64,000 nt of DNA from Hormiphora californensis (Eukaryota; Animalia; Ctenophora), in assembly GCA_020137815.1 (NCBI GenBank), contig CM035353.1:4340001-4404000 (forward strand), in the 5' to 3' direction. The notes under the pieces are model-generated. The model had not been told where the DNA came from. It did not search any database and saw only the letters and a list, made by a program, of their open reading frames with translations. Each line of letters begins with the position of its first letter. Position 1 is the first letter of the stretch. Below are positions 6,107-64,000 of the stretch, one piece after another. The position numbers were made by a program, and so were the translations under genes.

Positions 6107-7779
6107 TCAGTGTAGCTCTTTCTCTGCGAGGTAACTTGTTCGTTTGCAAACCGCCGCTAAAATCAATTCCGAATGGCTTCCATCGAATCTCGTTGACATC
6201 TTTTCCACCCGAGGGCGTCTCCCTCGTCCCTTTTCACCTTCCTGCAAATTGAGACAACTTTCAGAGCCAGTTATAAACTTATTCATGCCTATCATTATTT
6301 CCTAGAGTTACTATTAGTGCTATTAGTGCTATAATTTCTTAGGGGGTAGTTCTTGTAATTTTAACATCTCATTCTCATTTGTTTTGGCTATACCTGTTCA
6401 ATCCCGATAGCTCTCCACGTCGAACGTTCCCCGCTTCCTCTGCATCTGGGCCTTTGTCAGGCGGTTCCAGTTGTTCACCGCACTCTTAGCTTCTTCCCGG
6501 ACCGTTTTCCAGTACCGCTCTCGTAAGTTAGTGAGATAATAATTTACAATGTTTATTCTCACATTTCTTACTGCCTCGGACTGGGTCCGGTATAGGTCCT
6601 TTTCTTCAAAGGGGTCCTGGATGCAGGGGCCCCCATCCGTTATTTTCTCTCCTCTTGGAGCCCTTAAATTTATTCTTTTTCGGTCGAGAGATCTACCCAT
6701 AAAGGCTAGTACCATCAGCACCGTTGATACCTGGCTCCTATTCTGTTGCAACTCTCCCTCTCTGCTAACCCACGTCACGAGGTAAACAAGCAGAGACAGG
6801 TGTGCGCACAGCAGAGACAGAGAATGGCTTCCAATTTCCATCGAATCTCGTTGACATCTTTTCCACCCGAGGAGGGCGTCTCCCTCGTCCCTTTTCACCT
6901 TCCTGCAAATTGAGACAACTTTCAGAGCCAGTTATAAACTTATTCATGCCTATCATTATTTCCTAGATTTACTATTAGTGCTATTCAAGTTTTATTTAAA
7001 TTTCCATAAATTTACCTAACACATCCCCACATGGGGATCGTGTCACCATGGTATATTCCATATATATTGCCATATCCTGTCTGGCGCACAAAATTCATGT
7101 CCCCGAAACGGGGGAGGACTTCGGCTATTTTCCGGGTTAATTCATCCCGTAAGTCCTGCAAATTAAGACAATATTTACAGCTAATGATAACCCCATTCAT
7201 ACATATTATCATTTTATGAATTTATTAATCTAAGTTTTATTTTACTTTTTATACAATTACCTCACTGTCCCACACGGGGTCCGTGTCTTCATGTATATTT
7301 TCGAAAGTTCACTCATTGGAACATGTTCCAATCTGGACGGACGGATGGCTCTCCGCTGCACTCTGGCAGCCTGCTTTTCGTTTAAATTTCAATGTTCTTG
7401 TCATTTTCTAAATTAAATCATAATATTTTAGATGTTATGTAACGACTTCCGTGTTGCATATATTACAAGCCAAGGCCTTTATCACTGTGTGATACACAAT
7501 ACTACATACCCTTATATGCAGTACTATTCACACCATGGTGGTCTTGTCCACGGGAACATGGTCTACTACTACATGCCTTCATCCTCCTCCTTTCCACTCT
7601 CGCTGCCTGCCTTTTCTTGTATTTATTCGTCCTAGACATTTTACCCAGCCTCGAAACTTGGCAAAACCGAGGCTTTTTTTGCTAGGACATCTCCCTCGTC
7701 CCTCCTCACCTTCCTGCAAATTGAGACAACTTTCAGAGCCAGTCATAAACTTATTCATGTCTAATAGACAGTCTATCAT
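6107..7779 (-). other. Four paralogous small ORFs/exons (6107-6295, 6765-6956, 7012-7212, 7579-7779)
   Basis: Shared N-terminus MI.(.)MN..I...(E/K).CLNLQ(E/D); unknown function. Confidence 0.55.
6398..6755 (-). pseudogene. C-terminal fragment of TENT/TUTase-like nucleotidyltransferase (PAP-associated-like domain)
   Basis: GPCIQDPFEEKDLYRTQ resembles the CIEDPF nucleotide-recognition motif and matches 19640-19690 and 20890-21095; upstream (6755-6825) is LTR sequence. Confidence 0.7.
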
Positions 7780-12340: not shown

Positions 12341-13084
12341 AAATAAATAGCCTGGATGTTGTGGTCCATGTAATCGTTCATAGCACTCTAATAACTTCAT
12401 GGCCACTTCTTGGTTGGTCTAAGCTTAGCCTCCTCTGCTGGCATTTCGCAATGTTTCTTTGCCTTCTGAGTTTGGTAACAGCAGTGCGTATGTCGTTTGG
12501 CAGTGCGAGATTGAGGCTTTCTTTCACTTCGGTCTTGGATTTGTCCAATGTGGCGGTATTGATCTCTCCATTCTTGACTTGATGGTGTAGTATTAGAGCC
12601 AAGTGTGATCACTTGGGATCGAGGGGTCGGATTCGTCGGATTAACATCCGGTTCCATCCGGCCCCCGAAATAAACGCCGTTGCCCAGGTCTCCTCCTCCA
12701 ACTCCTCCTCTTTCTCCTCCTCTAACCCCTCCTTAATCTCTCGGTAAATGCCCGGGAGTTGTCCGTGTGTAGCGTTGTGCTGGACGGTACCGGGCTGGAC
12801 TGCACCAGGCTGGAGTGCACTGAGTTGGAGTACACCGGGTTGGAAGAATGTGTATTCCCGGCCGTAGATCTATAGAATCACAGCTGGGTTGGAACAATGT
12901 TACCCCTGATGGTCTGTACAACCTCATGGTTCTCGCTTTATGTCAATTTTTAATAACAGGAACCACTTACGGAGACTGTCCGATATAAAATATGACCAAT
13001 ATATTAATTAAATATGACCAATATATTAATTAAAAGATGTCAGATAAGGTAATAAAAGATGTTAGTAAAGAAGTAAAAAGATCT

Positions 13085-13507
13085 AGTGTCGTTTCTGATG
13101 GATGGTCTGCCATGTTTGCAAAGAAGTTTAACCAATGAGATGCTAAGTAGCGCAAAAGAATTGCTACATCTGGCTGCAGCTTTTGTGCCAGATTAATGTT
13201 TTCATAGGGGTCTTGTACTACGAAACATTTTGAATTGCTAATAGTTTCCCTATTGCGTATATCAAAAGATTTTGTAAACAGTTGCCCATTAGCAATGTTT
13301 GTTAGGACCCACACGATGATGCTGGTGAAGGGTTTTGGGAATGCCCTCCTACGATACTTCACGTTTTCATAGCTTTTGGTATCTACTAGGCCAAAACAGC
13401 GCTCGTTGACGCAGGTTGCAGCAAATATTATGGCCCATTAGCGAAGCTGTCTCTAGCTCTCTGATTCACTACTAGCTTCCGACAGAGCAGGGTTCTCAGA
13501 TACTACA
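13085..13507 (-). pseudogene. LTR terminus fused to TENT-like C-terminal fragment
   Basis: Begins TGTAGTATCTGAGAACCCTG at 13507; ORF contains CFVVQDPYENINLAQKL (PAP-associated DP(F/Y)..N motif). Confidence 0.6.
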
Positions 13508-15008: not shown

Positions 15009-15045
<37 letters not shown>

Positions 15046-15088
15046 TTATCTTTTTTGTTTCCTTGCGACTATGTTTTCAATTCAATAA

Positions 15089-15752
15089 TTATTTGTCTAG
15101 GTTTTGGATTAGGTGGGATAGCCTACTCTGTGCGTTTTCTGGTGCTATTGTAGCAGTGCTTCTAGTTCTAGCTCGTAGTCCTGATGATGAAGGAGCTTCT
15201 ACTAAGTTGGAGATATTTGGGGTGCTAAATGTTCTCTGTTGTTCTTGAACTAGTTCATGTAAATCATCGTTTAGTTGTTCATACATGATGTTTTCAGTGA
15301 GCTGTGTTTGTCTTCCTGGGACTGGTGGTGCTCTTGTGGGCTTAGTGATTGGACTAGCGTTGAGTAAGGTGGCTGGTGTGCTAAATGTAGTGTTTTGGAT
15401 GACCTGTGGTCTCCTTTCAGATGGGGAGTCAAAAGTTAAATCTATATGTAGCTTAGTTGATTTGTTCACTAACTTAATCAGTGGAATGCGAGCAGTGGGA
15501 AGTGCTAATTTAATGAGGAATTTACCGTCTTTACTTTTGATGGTTCTACAGATTTCTTTTATCAGGTGTGGGATTTTGTCAGTTGGAGAGTGGACAATAG
15601 CGTCTAAGTCAGACCCTACAAGATTTAAATCACTTACAGTCGAACCAAAGAACGAAATGGTGACGTTAGGTAGTTTGGTCGTGACCAGGCGAATCTGGTT
15701 AGCTACTTTCTCCCATGTTTTTCGGTCAGTGAGTTGTTTGATCAGGGTTCTC
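15089..15752 (-). CDS. Intronless TENT (Trf4/Cid1-like) nucleotidyltransferase catalytic core plus low-complexity tail, 5'-truncated
   Basis: Open frame upstream of ORF 15089-15469 reads ISFFGSTVSDLNLVGSDLDAIV...LPTARIPLIKLVNKSTKLHIDLTFD: GS, DxD and the third Asp all present. Confidence 0.88.
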
Positions 15753-16599
15753 AGATACTACAGTGCACCCTTATCACAGATGCCTTTCCCGCCGGGTGGC
15801 TTGGTTGAACTATTATCTCGGTTACCGTTCCTTTATTGAACTCCATTCTTATTTTGCTCTCAGTTATCAGTTATCAGTTATTCTCCATATTCTAGTACAA
15901 TGAGGAAATCCGTTAAGCATGTACTTAGTACATTGTACTACCGTAACCACTAACCTTCCTCTATGTCTCCTTTCTCTTGCTCGCTATAATTATTTGTATC
16001 TCTTTTCTCTCTCATAATTAGTGAATATCTGTATGACAAATTCCTAAACACCTCTCTGATATAAAGCTATTGCCAATATCCCCTACCCCAGACTGTAATA
16101 GAGGGTCGCGTCCACTCTGCATACTCTCTCTTGCCACTCGAAGCGTTCTCTCTCTCAGAGAGTCTCTGTAAACCAGGGGTCTAAAAGCACAAAATGGGCT
16201 TAAATTACGCGAGTTTGATTGATGGGAAGCTCCAAATGTTAACATGTTTGCCCTATCGTTATTGATAGGTTGCTTATAACGTAGTACGTAAGCAACCTAT
16301 CAATAACGTCACGTACACTAGAATTGATTGAACTAAGGTAAACACAAAGCTTGAATAGACGAATCTAAATGGTAGTAAAATCACAATATGTCTGAACAAC
16401 ATGGTATAATACTCAGTATTCTCAGTACTACAAATACTACTAACACTACGTTCAAGATATGTAACAAATATTAACAAATTCTAATTTTTAGGGTAGGTGG
16501 AATATGCTCAGTGAGAAAGACAGTGAGAAAGACAGCGTGAGCATTGCACGCTGTCTTTCTACCTCTCTCTCACTATTGTTGCTCATGCTAACAACCTCC

Positions 16600-18139: not shown

Positions 18140-18700
18140 TCACATAATTTCACGTCTGTGCTCTTTTTGCTTTATTTTCACTATATTACCTCTAGTCGGC
18201 CCACTGTAACTACTATCATCCTCTTCCTTCGACTCTTGGCCTCTGGATTCCTTATCTTTACTATACCATATACCAGGATAATAGTAGGTTTCATCAAAAT
18301 TACCATAACCTGCTATTCTCAAGAAACTGCTGTTATTTGTTTTCAGTAACTGCTCTGGTTTGATTTCTTCAATCAGGACTACTGATCCATATATCCATAG
18401 GTGGTAAATTTTGTCCATCACTCTGCACCACCAGTAAAAGACTCTTTCAAACGAGTACTTTTTGTCACACGGCCATGCCCACTCATATTCGCCAACTATT
18501 TCCTCGTCAATGATGATCGGGTTCCCTGACAAATACCTTTTCATGTCCACTCTCATTCTGCACTTCTTCTGGACTTTTCGTGAACATAATTCAACCTCAA
18601 CAAGTCCATTATCCTTGGGTCCAATCCTTGTTTCTTCCTTTCGGCCCTCAACCTTTTCCTCTCCTCTTCCCGTAAACTTAGTTGTTCTTCGTTATTCATT
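18140..18700 (-). pseudogene. Homolog of ORF0 (44687-45400)
   Basis: KYSFERVFYWWCRVMDKIYH..GSVVL..LRIAGYGNF aligns with KYCLTYVIWWWKELIRDFH..GGIGL..LRIKCYYKF. Confidence 0.65.
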
Positions 18701-19499: not shown

Positions 19500-20720
19500 C
19501 TAAATCTGGCTGAGTTACCTACCACGCAGCTCTACGCTTTATTGCGCATCCTAGACTAAGGGACTACTCGATAGTTCATTAAAATAATCCGTATATTCTC
19601 AGATATCTTTAAATCAAATCGCTCCTCCAACTTTGAGTCCTGTAAAGATCTTTATCTTCAAAAGGATCTATGATCTGGGGCGATCCTATTTCGATTTTTT
19701 CTCCCAAATTTTTCCTCAAGTCTATACTCTATTGTGCTATTGTCTATGCCTTCCATACTATCGCCCATAAACTCCAGGATCGTGGACCTTCGTTCCTGCC
19801 GCATCACTCCTTTTTTCCAATATGGGCCTTCTTTTTATTTCGCTCGCTGTTCGTGCTACAAATTTTTCCCACGGGACAACTTCAGGCATTTCCCTTCAAT
19901 ATGCAGGCCTCTTTTACCATGTTCCTTTCCTCCAAGACCCGTATGACGATCGTGATTGCATAATTCGACACCAGGGATGTCTGTAAAACAGGTGTTCCTT
20001 CAAACAGTGTCTTGATCGACTGGACTGTTATCTGGAATATTCTCTCTTGCGTGAACCTGTAAAATATTAGTGTTTTAAAATATGTACCATTTATTCCCAC
20101 TTAATTTTAGTTGTTACTACTCTAAATTTTAATGTCTCACCATTTGATAATTAGGTTTGAATTCCACAGAACTCTTTCTTTTTTGTCTTCTGCTGAGGCG
20201 CAGCAGAAATCCACCTTTATTCCTAATTCATGCCTGAGTGTCAGAACTTCCAGTTTGTTCACCTGATGGAAGGTGGTTTATACGCGATATTGTTTGATTA
20301 AATTCAACATACCAAATAAGATAATTACTGTAACTTATAACAGTATCCCCTAAATTTAACCCTTAACATACCTTTTTTACAAATACAAACTTTAAGCCTC
20401 TATTTTTCTCTATGTTTCTTATGTGTTTCATTGGCGCTCTTATCGGCCCATACTAATACGTCTATATCGCATTTTTGGTCGAACCAAAGACCCGGTATTT
20501 TATCTTCCTTCTTTCTAGCATCTCGTTAACCTCCTTCATCGCCTGATTGATTTTGTATAATTGTACCTGAAGTGAGGTTGATTTGAGTTTCGATGGCCTG
20601 GGAAGTTCAGATTGACTTTGCTGTTTGCTACTATCATTGTTATTATTATGTACCTTTTCGTCCTTCCCTATATCAACCCCCATACGGTGCTCGAGGTATG
20701 ATACCATTACTACAAAGTGG
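19500..20720 (-). pseudogene. Intron-containing TENT/TUTase-like gene, copy 1 (frameshifted)
   Basis: YRVFGSTK / CDIDVLVWAD; GT-AG introns 20263-20371 and 20057-20140; LRHELGIKVDF..VLWNSNLIIKW|FTQERIF..VSNYAITIV; GSPQIIDPFEDKDLYRTQ. Confidence 0.85.
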
Positions 20721-21374
20721 AGCTTGTTAATTATTATTATTAGTATACTAAACCAACAACGAAGTAATCCAACTATACTCGTTTGATATATGAGACATAA
20801 TATAAGCAACACAAGTAATATTAAAATCTTATATCTCTGAATATCTAGTATCATCACATCATAATTGTTCAGTTTGACACAGTTCTCTCGTGTCAAATAC
20901 CTGGCAAGTGCTCGAGATAGTAGGACACAATATTGTGTCTCAACTTCGTTACTGCCGCCTGTTGAGTCCTGTACAAATTCTTATCTTCGTAGGGGCCTTG
21001 TATTATTGGGGTGCCCCTTTTTATCTTTCCCCACAAGGGGCCCTTAGATCGACAACACTGTTGTCTAGCATCTCGCCCAGGTTTTCCAGGGCCATTAAAT
21101 AATTAATAATAATTAATAATAATTATAATAATTAATAATAATAATTAATAATTAATAGTAATACTGTTGATCCGTCGGTTCCCCGTTTTATCTCTCCTCT
21201 CGTTGTCCTTGTGGCTATATGCTGCTCTTTTACGACCTAGAATGAGGTGTGATATCGTTATTACCTTAACTTATCTAATTTGTCAATGATTACAATATAA
21301 TTATTTCCTTATTAGTTTTTTGTTGTTATTTACCTGTCCGATATACTAATAAAATATGACCAATATATTAATCC

Positions 21375-21525
21375 GGGCCTCTCCTATCATGCTGGTTATT
21401 GCTGTAAGATTTGGGTAAAATTCCTGCCCCATAAGCTCAAAGTTGTCTTCCCCGTCTATTGTTATGCAGCTGCTTCCTCTATGGTGACAGGAGCCCTGTT
21501 TCCAAACTGCACCACCGCCATGTTA
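21375..21525 (-). pseudogene. Fragment homologous to accessory ORF 58270-58622
   Basis: VQFGNRAPVTIEE..EFYPNLTAIT vs IQLGNNAPITIEE..KIYPDFTEIT. Confidence 0.7.
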
Positions 21526-21605
21526 AGATTGTGTATAAGATAGGGAAGGCTCCAGACTACAATATATGCAACAACAAAACTTAGTATGAGAGCTAATAAT
21601 AATGT

Positions 21606-21740
21606 ACGCGGATAATTCCCTCGATGTCTATCTGTCCGCCGCTTAGTCTGATACCTGGTATTTTTGTCACCCCGCTCAGCTGAATCTCATATCCCCCGGT
21701 GCGTATCGTCAGGTTCATGGCTGCAAGGGGTCGGATTATT
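21606..21740 (-). pseudogene. N-terminal fragment of acidic accessory gene with its splice acceptor
   Basis: taatccgaccccttgcag|ccATG then MNLTIRTGGYEIQLSGVTKIPGIRLSGGQIDIEGI. Confidence 0.85.
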
Positions 21741-22439
21741 GTCTCATCTCTCTCCATGTCCCTCAGATTGTCATCCCCTTTGGTTCTCCGAGCATTGTTC
21801 TCTGAGCCATATACACTTCGTATTAACCTCTCCGCGAGAGTGCTCTCTGTGATCTGTGCAATAGTCTATCGTCCAGTACTACTCTTCCGGGTGTTCCTCT
21901 CCTCACAGAGCACTTTTCCATCTGATAAGTTCGGAATTTAGGATGACCTTCTCCTTGTTATCCCGTTTTGAGGCGACACTAATATCCACCTAAATTCTTT
22001 TTTGTGGAAAAGAGGTTTAAAATTATACTGATAACAATCAAATTATATATAAGCACACTGTGGTAATAAATTAAACATACAATAAATTAATATCTATACT
22101 ACTTGAATAGTATGGTGTAATTGTCTTCCCTCGGTAACCCCGGAGGCTGACCTTAATTCCAGAGTCGTGCCTCAAAACCATCAGCTCTTGCTTGTCGAGC
22201 TGCCTCTCGAACTTGAAGGCTCCTCTCCTCAATGGCCCCACGTTACTCCTTATCCTGCACATTGAGGGAAATCATACGACTCTTACTGCAGTTAGCGACA
22301 ATCGAGAAAACAGACAGCATAACTCTTTTAAGCGACAGTGCTGTGTAATTTCTCAAAACTCTTATTCTTAGTGAGCAACAGGGAAAAGAATTGGGGAGAG
22401 AAAGTGAGAGACAGGGTGCCCCCTTGAGAGAGATTATCT

Positions 22440-22546
22440 CGCGCGGCGCATTGGCACGTGCGGTTTGGGCGCTGGCAGGCTTTTACATGTTGCAACATGT
22501 AAAAGCCTGCCAGCGCCCAAACCGCACGTGCCAGAGCGCCGCGCGT
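22440..22546. repeat. GC-rich palindrome of about 105 bp within an insertion in the TENT gene
   Basis: Centre acatgttg|caacatgt; near-perfect arms. Confidence 0.9.
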
Positions 22547-23340
22547 TACTATCTTGCTCTCTCTCACTCACTAGCTGCATTAACTGATTGGCTGTTATCG
22601 ATCACATGTACGCAGTCACAGGCTATCCCTGTGCACTAGGACTTATCACGTGACCTTTCACGTGACCAGATGCTGTGATCCCCGGTCAGTTAAGAGTTTT
22701 AAGAGTTTATACGTCGCTAAGTAGCGGCGCTTACCACACAAGAGAATGGAATCACCATTCTCTTACTCTTGATATCTCTTACAAGAAAATAAGAGTTATT
22801 TTGGAAAACAGTCAGCACCTGTCGCTTACTCCAGTAAGCGATTGCGAAATCAATCAGCACCTGCTAACTTCAGTAAGAGTCGTATGATATCCCTCATTAG
22901 CCCCTGTATGTCCCCTTCGGCCCATACCAAAATATCCAGATCGGAGCTGTTGATTACCGTATTGCTCCTTAACGACCCGAATATTTGATGCTCTATCCCT
23001 AGCCCTGACAACATTTTTTCCGCATCCCTTTTTACTTCCCCTATTTTGAATCTCTTTAGGTTTTCCTCCCTATTAGTCTCGACCCGCATCTTGTAATCTA
23101 AGTATGTACATACTACAAAAATTCAAGATGTCTCCTCGAGCTTGGCGTCCCCTCTCAACAAACTTTTTACGTTCATGAATGAAAAATGATCAATATATTT
23201 ATGAAAATTGACCAATTATATATTAATAAAAGATGTCAGATAAAGTAATAAAAGATGTGGTATTGCAGGGGTTGGAACAATGTTGCCTCTGATGGTCTGC
23301 ACAACAATAGGAACCACTTACGGAGACTGTCCGATATAAA

Positions 23341-24049
23341 TGTAGTGTAATTTGTCGTGGGTAATGGCTGGTCGTCTAGTGGTAGGCCCAAGGTGCGTAC
23401 CTGGTCGTGACGGTTGGGTGCTGAAGTATAACAGCGACGTGGGAAGGTGTCGTTGAGAAGGTGTACACGTGCTTTACGTGTATAACAGGGACAGGAGATG
23501 AGGTACACGATTCAGTCGTGTGTAGAAGAGATCGATGAGAGGACGTTGAGTATCGACCCGTGGTGGGTATTGTTGAAGGATTCGTAGAAGTGATACAAGT
23601 TAGATTTGTGGTCGTTCAAAGAAGTAACTTGTTACAAAACAAGGCGTATATCGTATAATATGGAAGTGAAGTTAAATTGTAAACTTAGAAGTGAAGATGG
23701 GGTTTGTTGTAGTGATTAATATCTTTTCGCCTTCCTATCGTCATGCCTATTGGCTTTAGCCAATTAGGAATGCCGATGATCAAGTGCGGTTGCTCTGAAC
23801 AACTCTGACTGACTGTGGGTCGTTCTGAGTAGCTCTGTTTTATTCTGACTTATTCTGGCTTGCTCTGAGTTACTTCGAACTGTACTGACGTTATATAATA
23901 GCTGTTCTGTCTCTATACTCTCTAGTTCTCTGTGGTTACGTAGCAACAGAGAGAGAGGGAGAGAGAGCAATAACGATTAACAGTTAGAGGTATAGAGAAC
24001 TACTGATATATATCTCTCTGGGCTCTCACTGTCAGCCCCAGATAGTACA
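23341..24049 (-). mobile_element. Solo LTR, 709 bp, TGTACT...ACTACA, 4-bp TSD TAAA
   Basis: Interrupts the multicopy motif ccgatataaaatatgacc; TAAA at 23337-23340 and 24050-24053; TATA near 23895. Confidence 0.88.
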
Positions 24050-25349: not shown

Positions 25350-27125
25350 TCGTTGTTTGTGGGACGTGGGTTTTTCTCGGTATATTGTCCCTGCAAACAT
25401 ATCGTCTTTTACTAATTCTCTTATGTGTTCTAACGTGAGGACTTCAGGAAGTACCCCGGCCCCCATGGTTAGTTCTGATTTAAGTACGCCAGCCAAAATT
25501 GTTTTAATTTGATGTTTCCATTCCATGTGACGTGAAATGGAGCTACTAATTCTACCTAGGAACGTTTGACTGACTGGTTTTATGAAGGAGTCATACTTTA
25601 TCACAATTCATTCTCATTTTGATCTTTGTCTACTGATGATTGGTGCCTCCTCGTGGGGCACCATGAAACATGTGTATAGACCTTAAAAACTGCTGTTGTT
25701 TTTAATTTGTATAAACTGCTCGCCGGCTAACCCCGTGCTAGAGCTCTCTGTTGATCTCGGACCAAGGGACAGGATATCTATCTTGTCATCACTCCACTAA
25801 TCTCGCTATAATGCAATGCTCCTTCAATTTATTTGTTGTAGAGCTCTCTTGTGGATCTGAGGACACGTACGACATCTGGTTTTGAGGAACAATGATCAAA
25901 ATGGAATACAGATTACACACTCCAAGAAAGGGAAATGGTTGACGTACTTTGAAATTGGGGAATCTAGAGGTCCAAGATACGAAGATGTGACGTGAAATGG
26001 AGCTACTAATTCTACCTAGGAACGTTTGACTGACTGGTTTTATGAAGGAGTCATACTTTATCACAATTCATTCTCATTTTGATCTTTGTCTACTGATGAT
26101 TGGTGCCTCCTCGTGGGGCACCATGAAACATGTGTATAGACCTTAAAAACTGCTGTTGTTTTTAATTTGTATGATGTTTCCATTTCAAAATTTGTCTTTC
26201 TTTAACTATTTGGTAGGCGACGGTATCTACATTACATTTGATACTATCAATTTCTTTTTCCAATACTTTATAAATTTCGACCACTTCCTTATTGAATTTT
26301 ACTTGTTCAGTAAGGAATGCGGTGTATTTTCTAGTCTGGGCGGCTTCGTACATTGTTGCCCCCAGACCTACAAGAGCTGGGATCCCTACTGCTGCTAACA
26401 CGACTCCAATTAATCGTTTTTTCTAGCTCCCGGTTGTGCGATTGCCGTGTCATTGTCTACTGTTTATGTGATGTGTTCCAAAGTTTATCAATTTCATTTT
26501 TTGTTTCTTCAGTAAAAAATTTTCCTAGTGGTGTTTGTGGTATTTCTAAATATCCCTTACACATGCGTGGAAGTTCAGATCTAAGTGCGTGTAGGTCGAC
26601 AGTTACGCTTTTCGCGAACCCTTCGACTTGTTTCCACACATGGTGTAGTTCGGTGTCGCCAAAAAGGGTTTCCTTTTTCAAGCTTCTAACTTCACATTTT
26701 CCATCATTGGATGGTTCTACGAGAGCCAATGCACAGGCCTGTTCAAAACATTTTTCATGCATCTTTTAACATTTTCAGCCATTGTTGGCTTTAGTAAGTG
26801 GAAGTTCGCTACATATCTCGGGTATTGGACTGATGCGTCTACTAACCAGGCATAGTCTGGTCTGCAATAACTATAAGGTCTATGTCATTGTGATCGGGTT
26901 GTTCGGTGCATTTAAAACTAGTTGGGTCAGGTATCGGTGCGGACAAAAAGACTGATGCAAATATGCTTTCTGCCCCTGCGGCAATATATCCTTGAGAACT
27001 ACCCCAATGTCCTTGAGAACGATTGGGTCTAGTTGCAGTTTGAACTGTGCTTGCTGGATCTCCGCCTCGCGTGCCACTCTCAATTTCATGCATAATAGAA
27101 AAATAATCAGCGGAATCAATTTCAT
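25350..27125 (-). pseudogene. Class I fusion (F-like) envelope gene, frameshifted and rearranged
   Basis: Signal peptide MKLIPLIIFLLC, Cys-rich ectodomain, basic site RELEKR then hydrophobic LIGVVLAAVGIPALVGLGA and heptad-like FLTEQVKFNKEVVEIYKVLEKEIDSIK; duplication of about 180 bp at 25525/25986. Confidence 0.7.
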
Positions 27126-28811
27126 CGTTGGAATCTTCCCGCGGGACGTCTGAAATGATTTGCTGTTTACTATGACGGTAGTGATACTTTTTCTGAATTT
27201 CGTTTTATTTATTGAGATATTCACATTAGGTAAAATTTTCCAAAATTTACCAAAATTTAATTGTTTGACTGCCCAAATCATGCCACACGCTGCGCCAGCT
27301 CGTGTCAGCCATAGTATTACTCCATCTATAGTATGTGATACCATTCTAGACTTTTAAATCCCGGTATTATTAGTTCAGGAGTGTCTAAATTTTGAGCCTG
27401 GTCTTTTTCCATATCGCTTATTCTATTTTCCATGTACTCTAGGGCAGCTTTTGATGGGTCCGTGTGTGATATGTCCTTATTATCATATATAAACTCATCG
27501 GGGAAATGAAATAAATCGTCAAATGTATGGGTTTTGAATATGGGTATTTCTAGAGCATTATTCGTGTTTATAATGTGTGGTGTGCTTCCAGGTTGATAGT
27601 TGTATGTTTTACCGTGTAACTCTATGAACCTACTCATTGGTGCAGAACAATTCGTTCTTGGTGATTTGTTATTGATTATGTTTGTCTGTGGGTCTATGAA
27701 TCCGCTTCTGAAATTTTCTGCCTGGTTTACTTTGTATATTATCGGTACGTCATAGAAACATTCATCTGTTTGTCTGAATTCTACTGTGTCAATTGGTTTA
27801 CATGGTGTTACTTGAATGAGTTCGCCAGTAATGTGGTCACTTTGTGCTACTATGTATGGGTTACTTAACATGTTTCGTGCGTATGCGGTGGGGTTTTTAA
27901 GTGCAAGTGTTTTGGTGACGTTAATGGTTAACTGTATTGCTTCACATAAGTTTGAATATTTAGTCGTCTTCTCAGTCATTACATCAGATAAGTAGTTAAG
28001 TTTTGTTAGTAATTCCTCTCTAACTGCTTCAATGGTTGTTGTCTCTGCACTACCTTTTATTAATTTTGGTGAGTTTTCTTTTCAGTGATTCTGATTTTGA
28101 AGCCGTTGGCGAAATAATATTTGTTCATTATGGGTTTTTCGTGTAGGTCAGCGCTGAAACCTATTTTGGCGATCATGATGTGGTTTCCTAAAATGATTGC
28201 TTGGTAGTTGCCAACTAATATATGTGTTTTTTCAACATTTAGTTCTGGTTGCTATATGATTGTTTCATTGTGGTTTGTTAGACAGTAACCTTTATTATAG
28301 GTTTGTGAACATTTAGTTACGTCTCCTAAATTTGATATCATATCAGTGCCGTGTGTTTTTGTTACGTATCCGTCCCTAATTATACATTCTATGACCGTAT
28401 TTGTTTTAGTTTTAAGCCATTTAGATTCGCACTTTGGGTTGACATGACCCGTATTTGTATTTCTATTGCCTGCTTTGTCTTCACATGTTGAATGAGTGAT
28501 GTGATCGCGATATTTATTTTCTGGCCAGTAAACTTTTCTATTTGATGTAGTTGTCTCTTTAGACCCAAAAAATTGCTGGATACTTTGCACGTTTTATCTG
28601 TAACTTTGATTGATTTGGCTTTTACTCTGTACTCTTTGATGTTTCGTTTCCAAAGTGTTACGTTGTAAATTGTCGGGTTGTCATTGTCACATTTAAAAGA
28701 CTGCGGGACTTTAAATAGTTGCTTAGCAGTCCTGCCGTCACATATCATGGCAGTGCTATTGACACTGTCAATGATGATAGCAAATAGAACAGTTGCTACC
28801 AAGTTTCTCAT
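27126..28811 (-). pseudogene. Class III-like (chuvirus G / herpes gB-related) envelope glycoprotein, frameshifted
   Basis: Signal peptide, MICD..C, NFFG loop, NPTAYARNML..TPCKPI..FRQTDECFYDVP..GFIDPQTNII..C, TM-like GVILWLTRAGAACGMIWAV; acceptor ttttcag abuts the ATG. Confidence 0.75.
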
Positions 28812-41335: not shown

Positions 41336-42660
41336 CTATCCCCTCCGCAGTAAACTCTCTAACCCTACAGACCATATCCATTTGCATCCGAACCAAATAT
41401 TCCTAGTTTCTTGGACCGTTGGGAGTGGGTGCAAATTAGACACCGTAGCGTCATTGAGTAGCCTGAAATCGATACACATTCTATTCTTTCCATTCTTCTT
41501 CTTGACTATCACTAAGGGGGACCGATAAGTAGCTGTGCTCGGTTCTAACACTCCCATTTCAATCATGTCTAGAATCATCTCTTTAGCCGTTTCGAAGCTG
41601 TGCATGGGTATGGGTCTATTTTTGTTAACAACAGTGGCATTTTCTTTAAGTTTTATCTCATGTGTATACAGGGTAGTTAGACCCAGTTCCTTATCTGAAA
41701 GACTGAAGATTTCTTGGTATTCCTTCACCAATTCCCGAACTTGAGCTTTCTGCTCCGGCGTTAGTAGAGGGTTGTCTTCGAACTGGAGTTTTTGTAGTAT
41801 AGCTTCTACTCTTCTTTCCTCTCCCCATTCCCAAGTGGGTATATCCGATTTCCAGTCTCCTTCGGCCAATTCAGTGACCGTTCCTACCACATCTCCTGTG
41901 GCAAAGTGCACACTCATGGGCTCGTCCCCCTGTCCCGCATTCACTGGGATCGCTGTCTCTGCACCTGTTAGTGTAACAAGACAGGTACTCTCCCCGCCCC
42001 CCACTTTGGAGCTGTAGAAGCATGTAGCCGGAAATGAGATCTCGCCCTCAATCTCGCATGTAATTGTTCCTTTTCCTTGTAATGTGTTATCTCTTTTAAG
42101 TTTCACATTTGCGACTCTGGATGGTCCTCGTCTGACCTTCATTATTGTTGATTGCTGGTCTTCCAGCATTAAAGTTAAGTCATTAAAGTTCAGCTTAGCT
42201 TTTGTCTGTTCCAAGAATTCAGTTCCTAATATAATTGTCTCTACAATACCAGCAATAATAAAGCGTACATTTAGCATTTTTTCTCTAACTCTGAGTTGGA
42301 GTTTCGTCTGTCCTTCTACAGCTAGCCCTCCTCCTCCAGCTGAAAGGAGGCTCACCTTTGTGTCCTCTCTTTTTTTGTTTTTTAACCAATCCCCCATTAT
42401 ACGGGAAGATATCAGATTATATTTGGATCCTGTGTCCACTAAGGCGGGGATCTTTCTATTGTCTATTTCTACCACTAAATAATAGTGTCCGTCTCCTTCT
42501 GAGACATTGCCTACAACTGAAATGTTCCTCACTATCTCCTCTTTTCTAGTTTCCGGCCCTTTCGTTTTTATCTCCGCTTCCTGAGTCTTGATTGGTTCCT
42601 GATCTCCCACCAAGTTCTCTCCAGGGCCCTCTCCAGAAGCGGATATTAGTTTGATGGAGC
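41336..42660 (-). CDS. pol: Gypsy pol: aspartic protease plus RT N-terminus, 3'-truncated; -1 frame relative to gag
   Basis: ALVDTGS, ILGTEFL, YRSPLVIVKKKNGKNRMCIDFRLLN, HPLP. Confidence 0.95.
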
Positions 42661-44343
42661 CTGTCTAGGTTGCATTCGCTGGGCTGGGGGGTATCTATTA
42701 TCTTGTAACGCTCTTTCCACTGCATCATTTGGTGTGTTCCTTGTTGTTTCTCTGCATTGGGTCGAGATATGCCCTTCCTTGTTGCACCTGTAACATCTCA
42801 CCTTAGGGCATCGGTTTGAGAGGTGTCCCTCCATTCCACAGGTATTACACGTCATAGGTCCCCTGTTATTCCTTGGTTGGTTCCAGGATCCTCTTCTCTG
42901 CTGTTGGTACCCACTCGGACCAGGTTGGTTCCAGGATCCTCTTGCCTGCTGCTGGTAACCGCTCGGCCCCTGCTGGTTCCAGAGCGCATCCCTAGGTGGT
43001 TGACGATACCTGTTGTTCCCAGGTTGATTCCACTGTCCTTTCCTCTGTTGTCCGGCATTGTTCTGGCCTCTTCTGGGGCTCTGGTTTCCTTTTGCTGAAC
43101 TGTAGCAGTTTCTAGCCAAGTGTCCCGTCTTTCCACAGTTGTAGCAGGCCCCCTTTTCCTGAATTGACCTTGCTTCGCCGCATTCCTTCCGGAGATGTCC
43201 CTCTTTTCCGCAGTTGTAACACCGTTTTGTGTTCTCGACCACATTGAATACCATGCGGCTCGGAGTATCCTCTGCCGGTCTTGCCTGATATACCGCTTCA
43301 AGTTCTATGGCATGTTTGACTGCCTCCTCAAACTCGTTATGTTTGGCTTTCAGCAGATCCTTTCCGATTCCATCATCTCGCACCCCCAGGGTGAATACGT
43401 CCAGCATTACCGATTTCCTCATATTCTCCTCTTCATATGCGACCACTGCATCTTCTGCTAGTCTCGTTGCGAAGTCGGACATTCTCTCTCCTTCTCTTTG
43501 CCTCGCATCAAACAGCTTTGATCGAGATTGTGCTTTTGGATGTACTTCTTCCAATTCCCTCACTATCTCGTTCAATGCCTCTTCTACCGTTGGCCTTGGG
43601 TCTCTTTCTCCTAAGTTCATCCGAAGAACCCTCTTTTGTGCTCTTGCGTCGAGGTATGAGGTCAGGAGGTTTATTAGTGCCCAGCTGTCGTCAGCAATGT
43701 TAGATGCCTTGGAATAAATCTTGAATCGTGCCAGGTACGATCTGATGTTATCAATCCCAGAAGCAAATTTCGGGGGTCTCATAGCCACTGCTGTTGTTCT
43801 CTCTCTCGGCCTGTTTTCTGTAGGTACTGGCAAATTGTCCATTACTCTGGTTTGCGCGTCCAGGACCCTGCGACTGACCTGATAGTTGTTCTCCAGTGCA
43901 GTGTATGCTCCGTGCATTCTTCTTATCTCTCTCTCCAAGTTTTCCACCTGGTCCGATTTCCTGTGAAACAAAGCCAGTTCAGTTCTTAAAGTGTTCCACA
44001 TGTTATCTCCGTGTTCGAGATCTGGGTTCAGGAGTCTGGCTGCTTGTTGATATTCTGCTATCTCCTGGTCTATCATATCTCCTCTCCCGATCTCTCCTTC
44101 CTGTAGTCTTTGCCTGTCTCTCCTCCTCCTTTCCTCTGCATGCTCCATCGCTATTTCCACCTCATCTCGTACTCTCTCCTGTTGGCCCTCGTTCTCTTCT
44201 TCTCCGCCCCTTTCTTGTTGTACAGCTGCAGCCGCCGCCACAGCCACAGCCGCATTTGCATTTTCCAACTGTTGCTGTTCTACCCTTAGTTCATTTTCTA
44301 ATGCCTCCAATTGGAGTCGATCTTGCTCTTGTTGTCCTTCCAT
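42646..44343 (-). CDS. gag: Gypsy gag with four CCHC zinc knuckles
   Basis: Coiled-coil N-terminus, PPKF, Q.EGE...F..RL, four CX2CX4HX4C motifs. Confidence 0.95.
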   Translation of the reverse strand: MEGQQEQDRLQLEALENELRVEQQQLENANAAVAVAAAAAVQQERGGEEENEGQQERVRDEVEIAMEHAEERRRRDRQRLQEGEIGRGDMIDQEIAEYQQAARLLNPDLEHGDNMWNTLRTELALFHRKSDQVENLEREIRRMHGAYTALENNYQVSRRVLDAQTRVMDNLPVPTENRPRERTTAVAMRPPKFASGIDNIRSYLARFKIYSKASNIADDSWALINLLTSYLDARAQKRVLRMNLGERDPRPTVEEALNEIVRELEEVHPKAQSRSKLFDARQREGERMSDFATRLAEDAVVAYEEENMRKSVMLDVFTLGVRDDGIGKDLLKAKHNEFEEAVKHAIELEAVYQARPAEDTPSRMVFNVVENTKRCYNCGKEGHLRKECGEARSIQEKGACYNCGKTGHLARNCYSSAKGNQSPRRGQNNAGQQRKGQWNQPGNNRYRQPPRDALWNQQGPSGYQQQARGSWNQPGPSGYQQQRRGSWNQPRNNRGPMTCNTCGMEGHLSNRCPKVRCYRCNKEGHISTQCRETTRNTPNDAVERALQDNRYPPAQRMQPRQAPSN

Positions 44344-44686
44344 TCTATAAAAAGTTGGCTTTATTAGTTTTATTCCTTATAAAGTTGTTTTAGTCATTAA
44401 ATATTATTCAATTGTCCAAACGATATATGTCAGTGGTTACAATCTATTCTTAAGTAAAACATCCTCGTGTTACGTTGTATAAACTTTCCTTTTAACAAAT
44501 CATATTCTCTATTTCACACGATTGTTTCAAATGATAAAATGTATTAAACGATTGTTTCACACGCCGCTACTTAAGTTTATATTACTTAAATATATCACAT
44601 ATTTTCTCACATTTTATATGTCCTTGCATATTACTTTTAATTTATAAAAGCAATTCTCTATCTTCACTGGAATTAATTGTTGTTGA

Positions 44687-45400
44687 TCATACTATATGAC
44701 CCTCCAATCTCCTGTGATTCGCTCTAGCCCTATTCAGTGCTGTTGCATATAACGTAAGCTCTCTTAGTGTTTTTGGAGCATTGTCTATCTCTATTCTCAA
44801 TCTAATTGCTTCTTCCGCATTCTCTGTCGAGATGTGATATGTCAATAGATGTTTTATACAATTCAATACTCCGTACGATGCTCTCCCATCTGCTATTTCT
44901 CTCTCGTCCTCTCTTAGTGTTTTGAATTTATAGTAGCACTTTATTCTTAACCCATCCTCCGAGTCAGTGTTCCGTGCCCCGACGACCAAATCATTCACTG
45001 TCATGTTGTCTCTCAGTCCTATTCCCCCGTTCAATAGGCGATGAAAGTCTCTGATTAGTTCCTTCCACCACCATATAACATATGTCAAGCAATACTTTTG
45101 CAAGACCAGTGGTTCGTTGGCCTCATATGTTACTACTTGACTTACTTCTAATCTCTCCGTCTCTTCGGGTACCGGTGCTATGAAGGTTACATTACCTCCA
45201 AAGAAGTCCAATTGTCTAATCCTCGATGACTCCCTATAAATGGTATCCGGCCCCCATAATATGTGTGCCTCTATTGTTTCGTGGATTGTTCCTGGTATTT
45301 CCATCACTGTTAGCCCTACCCGGCCAGCTGATCCTCGTTGTTCCTGTGCCTCAGTGTAAGTCTCCTCATCCTCTGATTCTGTGTCGGACTTATTAACCAT
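44687..45400 (-). CDS. ORF0, 237-aa accessory protein upstream of gag
   Basis: Intact ORF; homolog at 18140-18700. Confidence 0.75.
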   Translation of the reverse strand: MVNKSDTESEDEETYTEAQEQRGSAGRVGLTVMEIPGTIHETIEAHILWGPDTIYRESSRIRQLDFFGGNVTFIAPVPEETERLEVSQVVTYEANEPLVLQKYCLTYVIWWWKELIRDFHRLLNGGIGLRDNMTVNDLVVGARNTDSEDGLRIKCYYKFKTLREDEREIADGRASYGVLNCIKHLLTYHISTENAEEAIRLRIEIDNAPKTLRELTLYATALNRARANHRRLEGHIV

Positions 45401-46291
45401 CCTTGCTATAATGTGTACCGGTTAGTGATGTATTTTTTCCATCATGATTCATTAACACTCTCTGATTCTTATTCATAAACACACTATTACATCATAATTA
45501 TTAATTTACAATCATAACTTCCACACGAATTATATTACTCTCACAATTAATAATTAGTACAACTAGTCCTTTCTCCGCAACTACAGAATATGGCGGACTT
45601 GGTAACCGTAGAATAGCATTCCCTTTAATCTTGTATACGTCTCCTCACAGAGCCATATCAGATCTAGGGGGTTGTTACCTAATATAAATAATACTTTCAT
45701 TTCATGTTTCATACACTGCAAATACCGCATCCAGTCTGGGATAGGGTATTACATTATTGTCTGATACCTCCCGCTATAAAAAGCTTAAGCTATAATCAAT
45801 AAATCATACCAATTACCACACGCCACATACCACCCGCCCTGCCTTGCAGGTCGGGCAGCGTGCGTTGTATCGAACCACCACCGCGGGCGTGGGGCGATCC
45901 CCCACATTCTCACCTGTCCCCACTGATTGTACGTCTGAAGCTTTCACTTACCTTACTGGGGATGATTCGATGGCTCACCAATACCGCTTTCATGTGTCGT
46001 GCCTCTGTGGTGTGTGCCTCTTTGTTGTCCCTGCCTGTGAACTGTACCCCACATAGAATACAGTTATTCTCCTCTATTCCGTCCTCCTTATTCAGCCCTG
46101 GAAATAATATTAGTCTTTAGCCCAGTGATCTCTATTATACTGACACGATCGATGTGGTGGGAAAGTAGAGCACGAAAACGCGTAACCGCGGCCAGTCAGG
46201 AAGCTAGCTTAGGGCACTAGTTCATGTCAAACGAATGCAATTTTTGCTGCGCGCTATACCAAGTGTGTGTCTCATTTATACTGCTTCTTCA

Positions 46292-46651
46292 TCACGTTAA
46301 CGCGATAACAAGCAGCGCTGTGAGGTTATATACACTTAGTTTCTCACCGAAGTGTTGGAATATTAGTCGTCTCCAGTGAGGGCGGTCCTCATCCTTGCAG
46401 CTTCTGTATAGTTTCTCCCAGTCTTCTGGAAGCTCGCCGGGAATATCTACCTTACATTTCCGGGCTGGGTCCTCGTAGTTTTTCAGCATCTCCTCTGTGA
46501 GCGCCCCTACTTTCCCTTGGCGGAGGCGTTTCTGATGTTTCTTGCTAGCGATGTGTTCTCTAGCCTGTGATTTGGTTACCATCTCGCCTGTCCCACACAT
46601 TAAACATGCAGCCATCATATCTGCTAAATTGAGGGTAGCTATGGTTACCAT
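46292..46651 (-). CDS. U1/matrin-type C2H2 zinc-finger protein (119 aa)
   Basis: CLMC-x13-HIASKKH; the HxxSKKH ending is typical of RNA-binding zf-met/JAZ fingers. Confidence 0.72.
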   Translation of the reverse strand: MVTIATLNLADMMAACLMCGTGEMVTKSQAREHIASKKHQKRLRQGKVGALTEEMLKNYEDPARKCKVDIPGELPEDWEKLYRSCKDEDRPHWRRLIFQHFGEKLSVYNLTALLVIALT

Positions 46652-46822
46652 GGATCACTCTGTGGCATTCTATACATATAACATCCTGGTGTTTCACAAC
46701 TGTCGCCCATTATCGATAATGACTCCAAGCTACGCTCTCCTTCTCTCTCTCCCTCTCTCTTTAACACTCCCTGTACGTTCAGTCTCCCTGTACTCTGTGT
46801 GTTCTCTCTAGCTCGGCTCTTT

Positions 46823-47284
46823 ATGTTGTGTCCTCACTGTTCTACCCCCATTACTCATCCCAGCCCATCTTCTAAACATCCACCCACTCCTTCCAATCTT
46901 AGTCCTCAACCAGCCCGTCGCCGCTACTGGAAGAATTACCGACGTAAAAAGGAGCAAGAAGTCGATCAGCTGAAAGCCCGTATATCTCAGCTTAAAACGA
47001 CAGTTGATCGGCAGAATGGGGATGTAGACGGGCTCAGCGTTGGACTCCTAATGGCCAACGCCGAACTGGAGGAGGCAACACAACGGGAGACCTCGCTTGC
47101 AGCCGAGTCCCAGCGGCATCTTGAAATGGCCGAGATGTACCGCCAGCAAGCGGAGTTCTACTATCACCAACTCTATCAGGTCTCTCAAGACCTTTACCGT
47201 GTGCACCAGAGAGTTGTGACCTATCTCTCCCCACCATCCGTCACACCTCTCCATCCCCCAGGGCCTCCACCATACCAGCCGTAA
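46823..47284 (+). CDS. bZIP-like basic/coiled-coil protein, antisense to gag-pol
   Basis: CxxC N-terminus; NYRRKKEQEVDQLKARISQL (R-x9-L, heptad Leu); four copies in the window; lacks the invariant bZIP Asn. Confidence 0.75.
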   Translation: MLCPHCSTPITHPSPSSKHPPTPSNLSPQPARRRYWKNYRRKKEQEVDQLKARISQLKTTVDRQNGDVDGLSVGLLMANAELEEATQRETSLAAESQRHLEMAEMYRQQAEFYYHQLYQVSQDLYRVHQRVVTYLSPPSVTPLHPPGPPPYQP

Positions 47285-47446
47285 GTTATTACCACTCTAC
47301 AAACATATTGCACAATCATTTATTTTTTTAAATAAATTTAAAATCAAACTAATAATTAATAATAATTAATAATAAATAATACTATAAAATATATGCTGAG
47401 CAGTGTCTCTCATAGTCATAGTGTCTCTATAGGGTGGTCGAGCTAC

Positions 47447-48070
47447 CTAGTATGTGTATTGAGGCGGGGGTGGTCTCCTCCTTCGGATGGCGCTCTCGAG
47501 GGACGGGTACGGTGACATCCGTGGGTCAAGGGGCCGGACCTTCTTGATCACCATACGGTTCCAGCCTGCCCCGGCAATGTAGCACGTCCGCCAGGTCTCC
47601 TCCTCTGCCTCCATATCGCTGTCTGGTGCCTCTTCTCCTTCCTCTAATTCCAAGGCCTCTGTCTCCCCCTCGTTTTCGTCTTCTGGGGCCTCTATTTTCA
47701 TCGGGTCAGCCTCTTCTCCTTCTTCCTCTTCCAGGGCCTCTGTCTCCCCCTCGTTTTCGTCTTCCGGGGCCTCTATTTTCACCGGGTCTGCCTCCTGTCC
47801 TTCTCCCTCTTCCAGGGCCTCTTCTTCGATTGGGTCTGCCTCCTGCTGTCCTTCCTCCTCCGGGGCCTCTTCTTCGATTTCTTGCGTCTCAACCGATTCC
47901 ACCCTCTCAGGTTTACCTCCCCCGAAAATCTCTATCTGGGGCCCGGATGTGACACCCTCGATATCTATTTCCCCGCCGGTGAGTCGGATTCTCGGTATCT
48001 TGGTGATGCCTTTCATCGTGATCTCCATTGATGGTCCAGATTCTGGAACTCTTCTGATCGTAAGATTCAT
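47447..48070 (-). CDS. Acidic accessory protein (207 aa)
   Basis: Paralog of 2669-3259; acceptor ccccttacag|ctATG. Confidence 0.82.
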   Translation of the reverse strand: MNLTIRRVPESGPSMEITMKGITKIPRIRLTGGEIDIEGVTSGPQIEIFGGGKPERVESVETQEIEEEAPEEEGQQEADPIEEEALEEGEGQEADPVKIEAPEDENEGETEALEEEEGEEADPMKIEAPEDENEGETEALELEEGEEAPDSDMEAEEETWRTCYIAGAGWNRMVIKKVRPLDPRMSPYPSLESAIRRRRPPPPQYTY

Positions 48071-48186
48071 AGCTGTAAGGGGTCGGATTAGTTTTTCAAT
48101 ATTCTGCTAAATGTAAATGCTAATTGCTAACTACCAGTGCAAATTCTAATTAACTCAGATATAATTGTAAACCAGGGGTTAGCAAG

Positions 48187-48610
48187 CTTGATAAGAGGGC
48201 TCCATCTCTACTGAGTCACGCATATTCCCCCTCCATAGCTCTGCTATGGTGCTCAGTATAATATCTCTACCCAGGGATAGAATATCAAACACAGGATTGC
48301 GGGTAATAAAGAAATAGATAATCACTACAATATGTTCCATACCCTGTTATATATTCTCACTACAATTATGGCACTACTATATATTATGTAATAAGAGTGC
48401 ACTGGTATAATATCTAGTTGGATTCTATAAAGTATATCAACGCAAGCTTGATGAGAGCAGAACCGAAGAGCATGGCCAGACGATAGCTCTGAGGTAGGCT
48501 GGGTGAGTAGGGCTGCATCAGGGGTGGGTCTCCAACAAACGACAAATGGCAGTACCCACAGCTCTGGCTTATATAGTCCCCTGAGAAGGCAAAATACGCG
48601 AGACGCTAGC
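48187..48610 (-). mobile_element. PBS (48187-48204) and 3' part of the 5' LTR (48207-48610)
   Basis: Nearly identical to 56428-56822; TATATAA at about 48570; truncated at 48610. Confidence 0.7.
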
Positions 48611-48978
48611 CGTCGGAAAAGGAAAACAACAACGGATACCGAGGAAGAAACTTTAACCCTCCCCAGAGAAACAACAACTATCAAGGGAGGAACTATGGGA
48701 ACAACTTCAATAATAACAACAATTGGAGGCAAGACAACAACAATTGGCGACAAGACCAGAGCAGATACCAGCAGGGCCAACAAAACTATACGTGGCGACC
48801 GACTAACAACACAAACCAGAATAAACAACGCCAACCCATCAACATGATGCAACAACAGATCACAGCGCCTATGGCACAACTAGCCATGAAGACAAGCCAG
48901 GCAGCAGCGGATTCAACGAGCAGGAGAGGATCGATCATACAACATGGCACTGGGGGAGAACATCTTCAATGACCAAGC

Positions 48979-56427: not shown

Positions 56428-57356
56428 TCTACTGAGTCACGCATATTCCCCCTCCATAGCTCCGCTATGGTGTCAGTATAATATCTCTACCCAGGGATAG
56501 AATATCAAACACAGGATTGCGGGTAATAAAGAAATAGATAATCACTACAATATGTTCATACCCTGTTATATATTCTCACTACAATTATGGCACTACTATA
56601 TATTATGTAATAAGAGCACTGTTATAATATCTAGTGGATTCTATAAAGTATATCAACGCAAGCTTGATGAGAGCAGAACCGAAGAGCATGGCCAGACGAT
56701 AGCTCTGAGGTAGGCTGGGTGAGTAGGGCTGCATCAGGGGTGGGTCTCCAACAAACGACAAATGGCATAACACGCTCTGGCTTATATAGTCCCCTGAGAA
56801 GGCAAAATACGCGAGACGCTAGGCGTCTCACAATCGGTCCAAGCCGTCTATCTCTTCCCCTAGAGACAAGTGTGCGCAATAATCGGCTCTCCCTCTCTGT
56901 GATGATAGACATACGAGGCGCTGATCCGCTATAAGGTTTCTCCCTCTCTGCTACCAGTCATGAGGTAAACAAGCAGAGACAAGTGTGCGCACAGCAGAGA
57001 CAGAGTGTCCATACAGCTCTCCTCTTCGCTGTGGTTAGGGAAGGATCTATTAGATCTCTCTTTTCTCTCCAACGGTTAGAGAGTCTGACTTCAGGCTGGT
57101 GAGAGTCTCGTCATGATATGCACGCGGGATACCGCGTACACTCCCACCCGTAATTCTGGAGGTAGCCGTCCGCGTTTGAGCTTTGAAATCGGCCGAAGGT
57201 CGAGTAGTCTGGTCGAGTAGTCGGGTCGAGTGGTCTGGTTCACTCCACCCGTAATTCTGGAGATGGCCGTCTGCGTTTGAGTCTTTGAAAAAAGGTCGAG
57301 TAGTAGTCTAACTACTCCGTTTTGCCGCGGTTTGTCGCGCTACACCCCCCCTCCTC
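56428..57356 (-). mobile_element. PPT (57345-57356) and 3' LTR (57344 to 56428, TG...GA)
   Basis: gaggagggggg|TGTAGCG; homology with the other LTR copies ends exactly at AGTAGA 56428 with no PBS after it; possible junction at 57139. Confidence 0.65.
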
Positions 57357-57515
57357 ACGAAAGCCAAGCCAAGCCCCCCCTACACGCTCCTTCCATTACT
57401 CCAATACTAATTAATTCACTTTTTACTTATCTCTTTTTATATTTCTAATATTTTTAACATAGTCTATAGCTTTTCATATTCATTTTAACTTCTATAATTC
57501 ACATATTGTCTTCTA

Positions 57516-58267: not shown

Positions 58268-58269
58268 TA

Positions 58270-58622
58270 AAACCCGTGATTGATCCTTCAGCCCTAAGGG
58301 GGCGAGTGAAAGGGGGAAAGGTCTTCAACTCCGGGTTTAACATCACATCTCCTGATCTTTTGATCATTCTGCAAAAGGAATGCCTCACTGTGAAAACCCG
58401 GAAAACCAGAGGAAACACGTACCACGCGCTTTGGGCGCCGTCAATGTTAGTTATCTCCGTGAAGTCCGGGTATATTTTCCAGGAGTTGCTTTCTTCCCAG
58501 GAGTTGATCCCTTCGTCAACTTTTCCGGATAATTCCTCTATCGTGATCGGGGCGTTGTTTCCCAACTGTATCTTCGTCTTGGGCACTCGGCGCACCCTGT
58601 ATTCGTGCAAAACTCCTGCCAT
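58270..58622 (-). CDS. Accessory ORF between pol and PPT, truncated by the MITE
   Basis: ATG ORF with TATA-like ctatataga about 90 bp upstream; homolog at 21375-21525. Confidence 0.65.
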
Positions 58623-63999: not shown

Positions 64000-64000
64000 T

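Follow-up and report, generated by a model that had tools for sequence, protein, structure and literature searches.

Remains of terminal nucleotidyltransferase genes in retroelement debris of Hormiphora californensis, possible cargo of LTR retrotransposons

In a window of 64,000 nucleotides of the ctenophore Hormiphora californensis (contig CM035353.1, positions 4,340,001 to 4,404,000), we found pieces of two families of terminal nucleotidyltransferase (TENT) genes, TENT-A and TENT-B, which are interleaved with the orphan ORFs X, Y, W, V, C, and U. None of the TENT copies in the window is intact (Table 1). The stretch that had been flagged for study is a real but dead TENT gene fragment, unable to make an enzyme. 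We lean towards the explanation that such genes were carried, as accessory genes, by large multigene LTR retrotransposons of the ctenophore (Gypsy/errantivirus-like). A first-pass annotation, made from the letters of the DNA alone, had already proposed an LTR retrotransposon with its own RNA-tailing enzyme. Copy number, linkage to accessory genes, and nematode BEL/Pao polyproteins speak for this proposal, but no element with two LTRs enclosing any TENT was seen in this scrambled window.

Table 1. Coordinates of the main features of the window
Feature	Positions	Strand	Remarks
TENT-A catalytic palm (GS motif, D-x-D, third Asp)	15383..15754	-	113/124 identical (91%) to P0002 aa 9-132; match to PF22600; start codon and first ~8 codons absent
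98-codon tail fused in frame to the palm, unrelated to TENT	15089..15382	-	no match in P0002; no second copy in the window; only a weak Pfam row, E 0.069
20-mer, copy a: most likely TGTAG splice acceptor and start of TENT exon, less likely an LTR end	15743..15762	-	
20-mer, copy b, and 50-nt filler	13438..13507	-	filler not TENT-like
TENT-A central/nucleotide-recognition half (QDPYENINL)	13078..13437	-	96/120 identical (80%) to P0002 aa 171-290
TENT-B copy 1, broken	20902..23113	-	inverted-repeat insertion ~22263-22896, GT-AG intron 22151-21990, foreign fragments inside; 76% identical over 68 aa to P0008
TENT-B copy 2, frameshifted	19630..20707	-	GT-AG introns 20371-20263 and 20140-20057
TENT-B copy 3, C-terminal part including stop	6401..6748	-	joined to LTR-like repeat piece (6822-6753)
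ORF U remnant, small orphan	15763..15890	-	homologous to copies at 8720 and 56415
ORF V, orphan	18143..18691	-	67% identity over 128 columns to P0008 aa 330-441; joined to TENT-B in the Pleurobrachia model P0008
Solo LTR, 709 bp, TG...CA	23341..24049	.	4-bp TAAA target duplication
Broken gB-type env	26335..28811	-	PF24664, E 2.4e-17; ~74% identical (103/140, counted by eye) to the Pbac_errantivirus_5 env in the PMC13524379 supplement
Multigene Gypsy element, 5' half	41336..48614	-	LTR-like repeat, PBS-like TGGAGCCC, ORF X, antisense ORF Y, zinc finger, ORF Z, gag, protease, RT start
Same Gypsy family, 3' half	56430..64000	-	RNase H, integrase, ORF W, polypurine tract, TG start at 57344, LTR-like repeat 96.6% identical to the 48.6-kb copy over 408 nt

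The flagged frame lies on the minus strand, running from 15757 to 15089, and encodes 222 aa that include FFGSTVSDLNLVGSDLD, TARIPLIK, and HIDLTFD; the plus strand of 15089-15762 is closed, with no open frame. All three catalytic Asp are present in this start-less frame, as had been claimed for it. Its sole Met is in the unrelated tail, with none in the palm. TENT sequence makes up about 124 codons and no more, the last 98 of the 222 being unrelated. The assignment to the TENT class was borne out by 1) the Pfam cut-offs for PF22600 (E 1.4e-10) and PF01909 (E 2.4e-5), which the frame passes, 2) the intact DDD triad, and 3) the model of an intact homologue, P0002, which matches TENT folds. The best PDB sequence match of the frame is chain 3nyb_A ("Poly(A) RNA polymerase protein 2," E 3.7e-4), which we take to be yeast Trf4.

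P0002, retrieved in a search with the palm, is a protein of 329 aa on one 1279-bp ENA contig, and it covers both TENT-A pieces, the palm and the C-terminal half, which are 2 kb apart in the window. The C-terminal piece, previously called TENT-like, is real: it is the central-domain half with the recognition motif, which sits outside the flagged frame and is also found in intact P0002. There is no counterpart within the window to P0002 residues 1-8, 133-170 (~38 central residues), and 291-329. The structure of P0002 predicted by AF2 from a 28-sequence alignment has a pLDDT of 90, compared with only 33 for a single-sequence fold, and its model matches TUT7, Cid1, TUT1, and GLD-2 in Foldseek (E 6.5e-14 to 3e-11, TM ~0.6-0.68). 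In the profile and Foldseek comparisons, of the kind that the first-pass annotation had suggested (NT_PAP_TUTase, PAP_assoc), PF22600 and TENT folds were matched; PF03828 was not matched by P0002 in the Pfam scan. In a word-based search with P0002, the sole result was P0002 itself. The 50-nt filler next to the second 20-mer was considered as TENT derived and rejected, 711 of 5000 random 48-mers scoring as well.

With the known TENT/TUTase module (TUT7, Cid1, TUT1, GLD-2/TENT2, and Trf4/TENT4), these proteins have in common the GS...DxD...D triad, a two-domain fold (as predicted for P0002), and a QDPY-type recognition motif. They differ from solved TENT structures in being 15-20% identical to them, ~320 aa long, and devoid of zinc knuckles or RRM, and from the module as a whole in forming their own clade among the matches, with many diverged copies. 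We delimited this clade using a profile made from P0002 and P0003, the latter an intact TENT-B relative among the gene models of Pleurobrachia bachei, which shares 30% identity with P0002 over 136 aa. The profile found 179 proteins at E ≤1e-3 and 25 at 1e-10. In a tree of the 123 of 151 proteins that cover the core, composed only of matches to the clade's own profile and free of named reference TENTs, 30 compact sequences form one clade (support 0.979). The clade lies apart, in this reference-free tree, from matches whose motif we presume to be Trf4-like.

The catalytic triad is kept in all 26 clade members that were checked (DDD in 25, DDE in one). At the uracil-selecting position, many clade members have Arg or Lys, and TENT-A has Ile; in plant enzymes, U can be selected by Arg or Lys there as well. 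The His responsible for UTP selection at this position (PMC6232586) was seen in 0 of the 17 clade members whose motif was found, a difference from the TUT4/7-Cid1 uridylyltransferases. Pfam scans of the relatives covered 25 + 15 of 150 listed matches, plus 7 cluster members, and NCBIfam gave nothing useful. Scans of viral contigs with P0002, RNase H-integrase, the 20-mer, A4, A6, P0012, and A8 found no locus, and scans of metagenome contigs with P0002 and A6 found no locus of a relative. Taken together, the sequence and model comparisons point to an undescribed clade of ~30 compact TENTs with a predicted TUT7/Cid1/GLD-2 fold.

The second family, TENT-B, whose copies were first found as NTase pieces by a motif scan, bears on the question of who carries these genes. 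In its C-terminal blocks (three pairs, 29-50 codons), pS is 0.86-0.94 and pN 0.28-0.32, with synonymous sites saturated; the diverged copies show signs of purifying selection, which would also be expected of a host family. The TENT gene had been described as intronless, which is right for the palm piece but does not extend to the sister family, where two TENT-B copies have GT-AG introns. There are three such introns (19630-22151), at unshared positions and each with G on the exon side, which suggests separate gains or losses. They count against carriage by an LTR element since a sense-strand retroelement gene tends to lose introns. Splice signals are nevertheless compatible with element membership because CERV, an accessory protein of the Caenorhabditis elegans LTR element Cer1 that acts on element RNA, is made from a spliced mRNA (PMC10309623). 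Unlike a TENT, CERV is an RNA export factor and not an enzyme (PMC10309623).

The TENT-B introns also suit a different owner, namely a ctenophore host family that expanded and evolves fast, whose members may tail the RNA of transposons or viruses as a defence and whose dead duplicates were scrambled with transposon debris. That two of the relatives are P. bachei gene models would fit such a family. The introns and the acceptors discussed below, which are normal in host genes, agree with host genes just as well as with element genes. Host TENTs are known to act against transposons, as does MUT-2 (PMC7988573). We nonetheless judge this alternative unlikely: all copies in the window are broken and mixed with element genes only, intron positions differ between copies, and the link to the orphan ORF V recurs in another genome. 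This last point comes from the P. bachei model P0008, in which a TENT resembling copy 1 of TENT-B is followed by a region resembling ORF V (identities in Table 1), in the same order as in the window; P0008 is an automatic gene model and may fuse neighbours. TUT4/7 reportedly work on LINE-1, another instance of a host TENT acting against a transposon. If the TENTs were host genes after all, they would still represent an undescribed expanded TENT clade.

The 20-mer ahead of the palm had been taken for an LTR terminus to which the TENT core was fused. It does precede both TENT-A pieces, with two exact occurrences at 15762 and 13507, no other place in the window at ≤3 mismatches, and 0 of 100 shuffles with two matches. 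The solo LTR near 24049 to which it had been likened is also real, but the likeness is confined to 10 of the first 11 bases, with no similarity beyond. When the 70 bases from 13507 were tried as kin of the solo LTR, the candidate was rejected, 41 of 1000 shuffles aligning equally well. As an LTR terminus, the 20-mer shows the expected TG but, within the window, no LTR match past 11 nt, no target-site duplication, and no polypurine tract. Neither a second matching LTR nor a target-site duplication was found in the window around either TENT-A piece, and no full-length element that starts with the 20-mer as its LTR and holds a TENT was seen there. The palm piece as a mini-LTR was likewise rejected, since it has no target-site duplication and its end is coding sequence.

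A splice acceptor accounts for the 20-mer better. The heptamer TGTAGTA occurs 17 times in the window, 10 of them on the minus strand, and 4 of these 10 head TENT pieces. Since it is found as well at the head of both TENT-B 5' ends, in one case 2 nt ahead of the ATG, we read the 20-mer as an acceptor and not as an LTR end: it is probably the gene's own splice acceptor region, its start codon lost, carried along with the two pieces. YAG lies within 8 nt of the ATG in 13/18 ORF starts (9/12 families), the 18 being hand-chosen, compared with 507/2062 ATGs overall. In Hormiphora, a spliced leader is found on at least 56% of long reads, and ctenophore host genes too are expected to have an acceptor before the ATG (PMC8527503). 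The fusion of a TENT core to an LTR terminus is, on the evidence of TGTAGTA and YAG, probably wrong.

That the 20-mer is instead a true LTR 5' end, with the TENT core joined to it as an internally deleted LTR element, strikes us as quite improbable. This reading keeps some room because the local LTRs begin with TGTAG or TGTAC and similarity to ORF U fades near the 20-mer. Both flanks moreover show purine-pyrimidine alternation (GCAC and ACAT), and the palm piece terminates at ACACTACA, like the end of the solo LTR; however, ACACTACA codes for part of the TENT (QNTT in P0002), and 5 occurrences of it were counted where 2.4 are expected. It would be compatible with LTR carriage of the TENT gene, from which it differs only on the nature of the 20-mer.

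Among the window ORFs scanned, no host genes were recognised, only element genes; no tRNA genes were found. Carriage of the TENTs by LTR elements, the explanation we prefer, draws first on this setting: two TENT families, each in more than one piece, occur in several copies in a window without recognised host genes. Among their pieces are scattered X, Y, and W, ORFs that have Gypsy settings in other parts of the window. There, X, antisense Y, a zinc finger, and Z are bounded on one side by an LTR-like repeat with a PBS-like site and on the other by gag, and W is found between pol and the polypurine tract, which is followed by TG at 57344; homology of W consists of a single weak match (E 8.6e-4). 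The order TENT-V of P0008 adds a further link, since V adjoins Y twice in the window and Y is upstream of gag. Adjacency in scrambled DNA is weak evidence, and TENT-V-Y-gag is a chain of three adjacencies.

The orphan ORFs also lend themselves to another explanation, in which the TENTs and ORFs V and C are cargo of other mobile DNA, be it a large DNA transposon or a nuclear DNA virus that became endogenous, and came to lie among Gypsy debris by mixing alone. Introns would be in keeping with replication as DNA, the orphan ORFs resemble viral genes and are small, neither Pfam nor the Atlas gave a match for ORF C, and one cluster of the clade (P0012/P0159) is on very long ENA contigs (144-318 kb). 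However, no DNA-virus or transposase gene was recognised among the window ORFs scanned, viral structures match the P0002 model weakly (best E 1.5e-5, TM 0.39), and V adjoins Y, which is upstream of gag. To this explanation we assign a low probability.

The Gypsy pieces of the window resemble the ctenophore Ty3/gypsy errantiviruses with env (PMC13524379), to one of which the broken gB-type env is close (Table 1). LTRs of these errantiviruses measure ~0.4-0.7 kb in 3 of the 4 elements with listed LTRs, and the PBS begins with TGGAGCC in two (PMC13524379), so that LTR length range and PBS start are like those in the window. The LTR-like repeat of the window has no CA at its end, and its PBS-like site matches a reported tRNA end over 8 bases only. 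The env of the window may belong to another element than the TENT. Together with the P. bachei relatives of TENT-B, its likeness to a P. bachei errantivirus env points to a ctenophore host. The main text of PMC13524379 has 0 occurrences of "nucleotidyl" and 0 of "accessory." Three copies of the LTR-like repeat (48614-48166, 5508-3357, and 57344-56430) have a conserved 54-codon ORF (T) inside, and two of them are followed by the PBS-like TGGAGCCC.

An independent precedent for LTR carriage is found in nematodes. P0045, a BEL/Pao polyprotein of Heterodera, has PF22600 behind its integrase, with DDD intact. In the cluster to which it belongs, PF22600 is found in 7 of 8 members (P0045, P0161, P0163-P0167), from two species, in 6 of them behind a post-integrase domain. 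These are automatic models and may fuse neighbours. What they share with the ctenophore case is the joining of LTR retrotransposon proteins to PF22600, but the LTR superfamily and the host are other ones. Since the Heterodera TENT falls outside the compact clade in the tree of 123 cores, it would represent a separate capture; it shows that LTR carriage is possible and does not speak to clade membership. No description of Heterodera BEL/Pao polyproteins with a TENT domain was found in the literature searched. A more far-reaching scenario, which we regard as conceivable but doubtful, is that RNA-tailing enzymes entered LTR retrotransposons on at least two occasions, in Gypsy-type elements of ctenophores and in BEL/Pao elements of nematodes, and that the ctenophore clade radiated in multigene elements, expressed via the host spliced leader and countering silencing based on 3' ends.

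If LTR elements did carry the TENT genes, live elements would express the gene through a splice acceptor immediately ahead of the ATG, in animals that trans-splice most mRNAs. The product would be a ~320-residue enzyme without RNA-binding domains, which probably adds A-rich tails; A-tailing is predicted because the position that selects uracil is occupied in TENT-A by neither His nor a basic residue. Its likeliest role would be re-tailing or protecting element RNA ends against host decay, and a second option would be tailing host small RNAs. The window would then be a graveyard, with fragments of these genes jumbled by shuffling. Terminal tailing is a means by which hosts act against transposons and viruses. 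An element-encoded tailing enzyme would, if true, be a counter-move to host tailing that is undescribed in the literature found, where, judged mostly by titles and abstract openings, no TENT is reported in an LTR element. The nearest known design is that of bdelloid rotifer LTR retrotransposons, with an enzymatic ORF3 that includes a DEDDy 3' exonuclease and is, like the TENT, a captured enzyme for nucleic acid 3' ends (PMC5408684). In contrast to a TENT, the exonuclease trims and does not extend, and it comes as a single ORF3 and not in a multigene cassette (PMC5408684). LTR carriage would also suggest that complex retroelements with many genes exist in an animal lineage that was among the earliest to branch off. 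The intact proteins P0002, P0003, and P0004 and the P0045 domain are open to direct testing.

Several further observations concern the architecture of the window. From 6.0 to 23.4 kb, 27/27 merged coding fragments are on the minus strand, a count whose limits were picked after looking and which a tandem repeat inflates. The one-strand pattern, seen across 6401-23113, includes ORFs that are antisense in more intact settings, and it resembles a piRNA-cluster-like graveyard. The tandem unit, of ~1.84 kb (9253-14987), is present in two near-complete copies and a rearranged partial third, 97-99% identical, and the TENT-A C-terminal piece sits between its duplicated parts. Hairpin-forming sequences, namely a perfect palindrome of 140 bp and a second hairpin, and several long elements with inverted repeats are found at 19327-19466, 22426-22559, 3835-5179, 31959-32741, 33751-35150, and 57492-58241.

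Small orphan ORFs recur in the window as diverged copies; for an N-terminal pair of ORF X, pS is 0.59 and pN 0.32. ORF C is Cys/His-rich and is represented by about ten diverged pieces (8865-14987, 28877-29708, and 55467-55655). ORF Y (46682-47284, plus strand), antisense to gag, has copies at 31250-31633, 2313-2423, and 17451-17639 and combines a CPHC motif, a basic region, and a coiled coil, with a weak bZIP row (E 0.089). In this arrangement, ORF Y recalls what we take to be a similar case, the antisense bZIP of HTLV-1.
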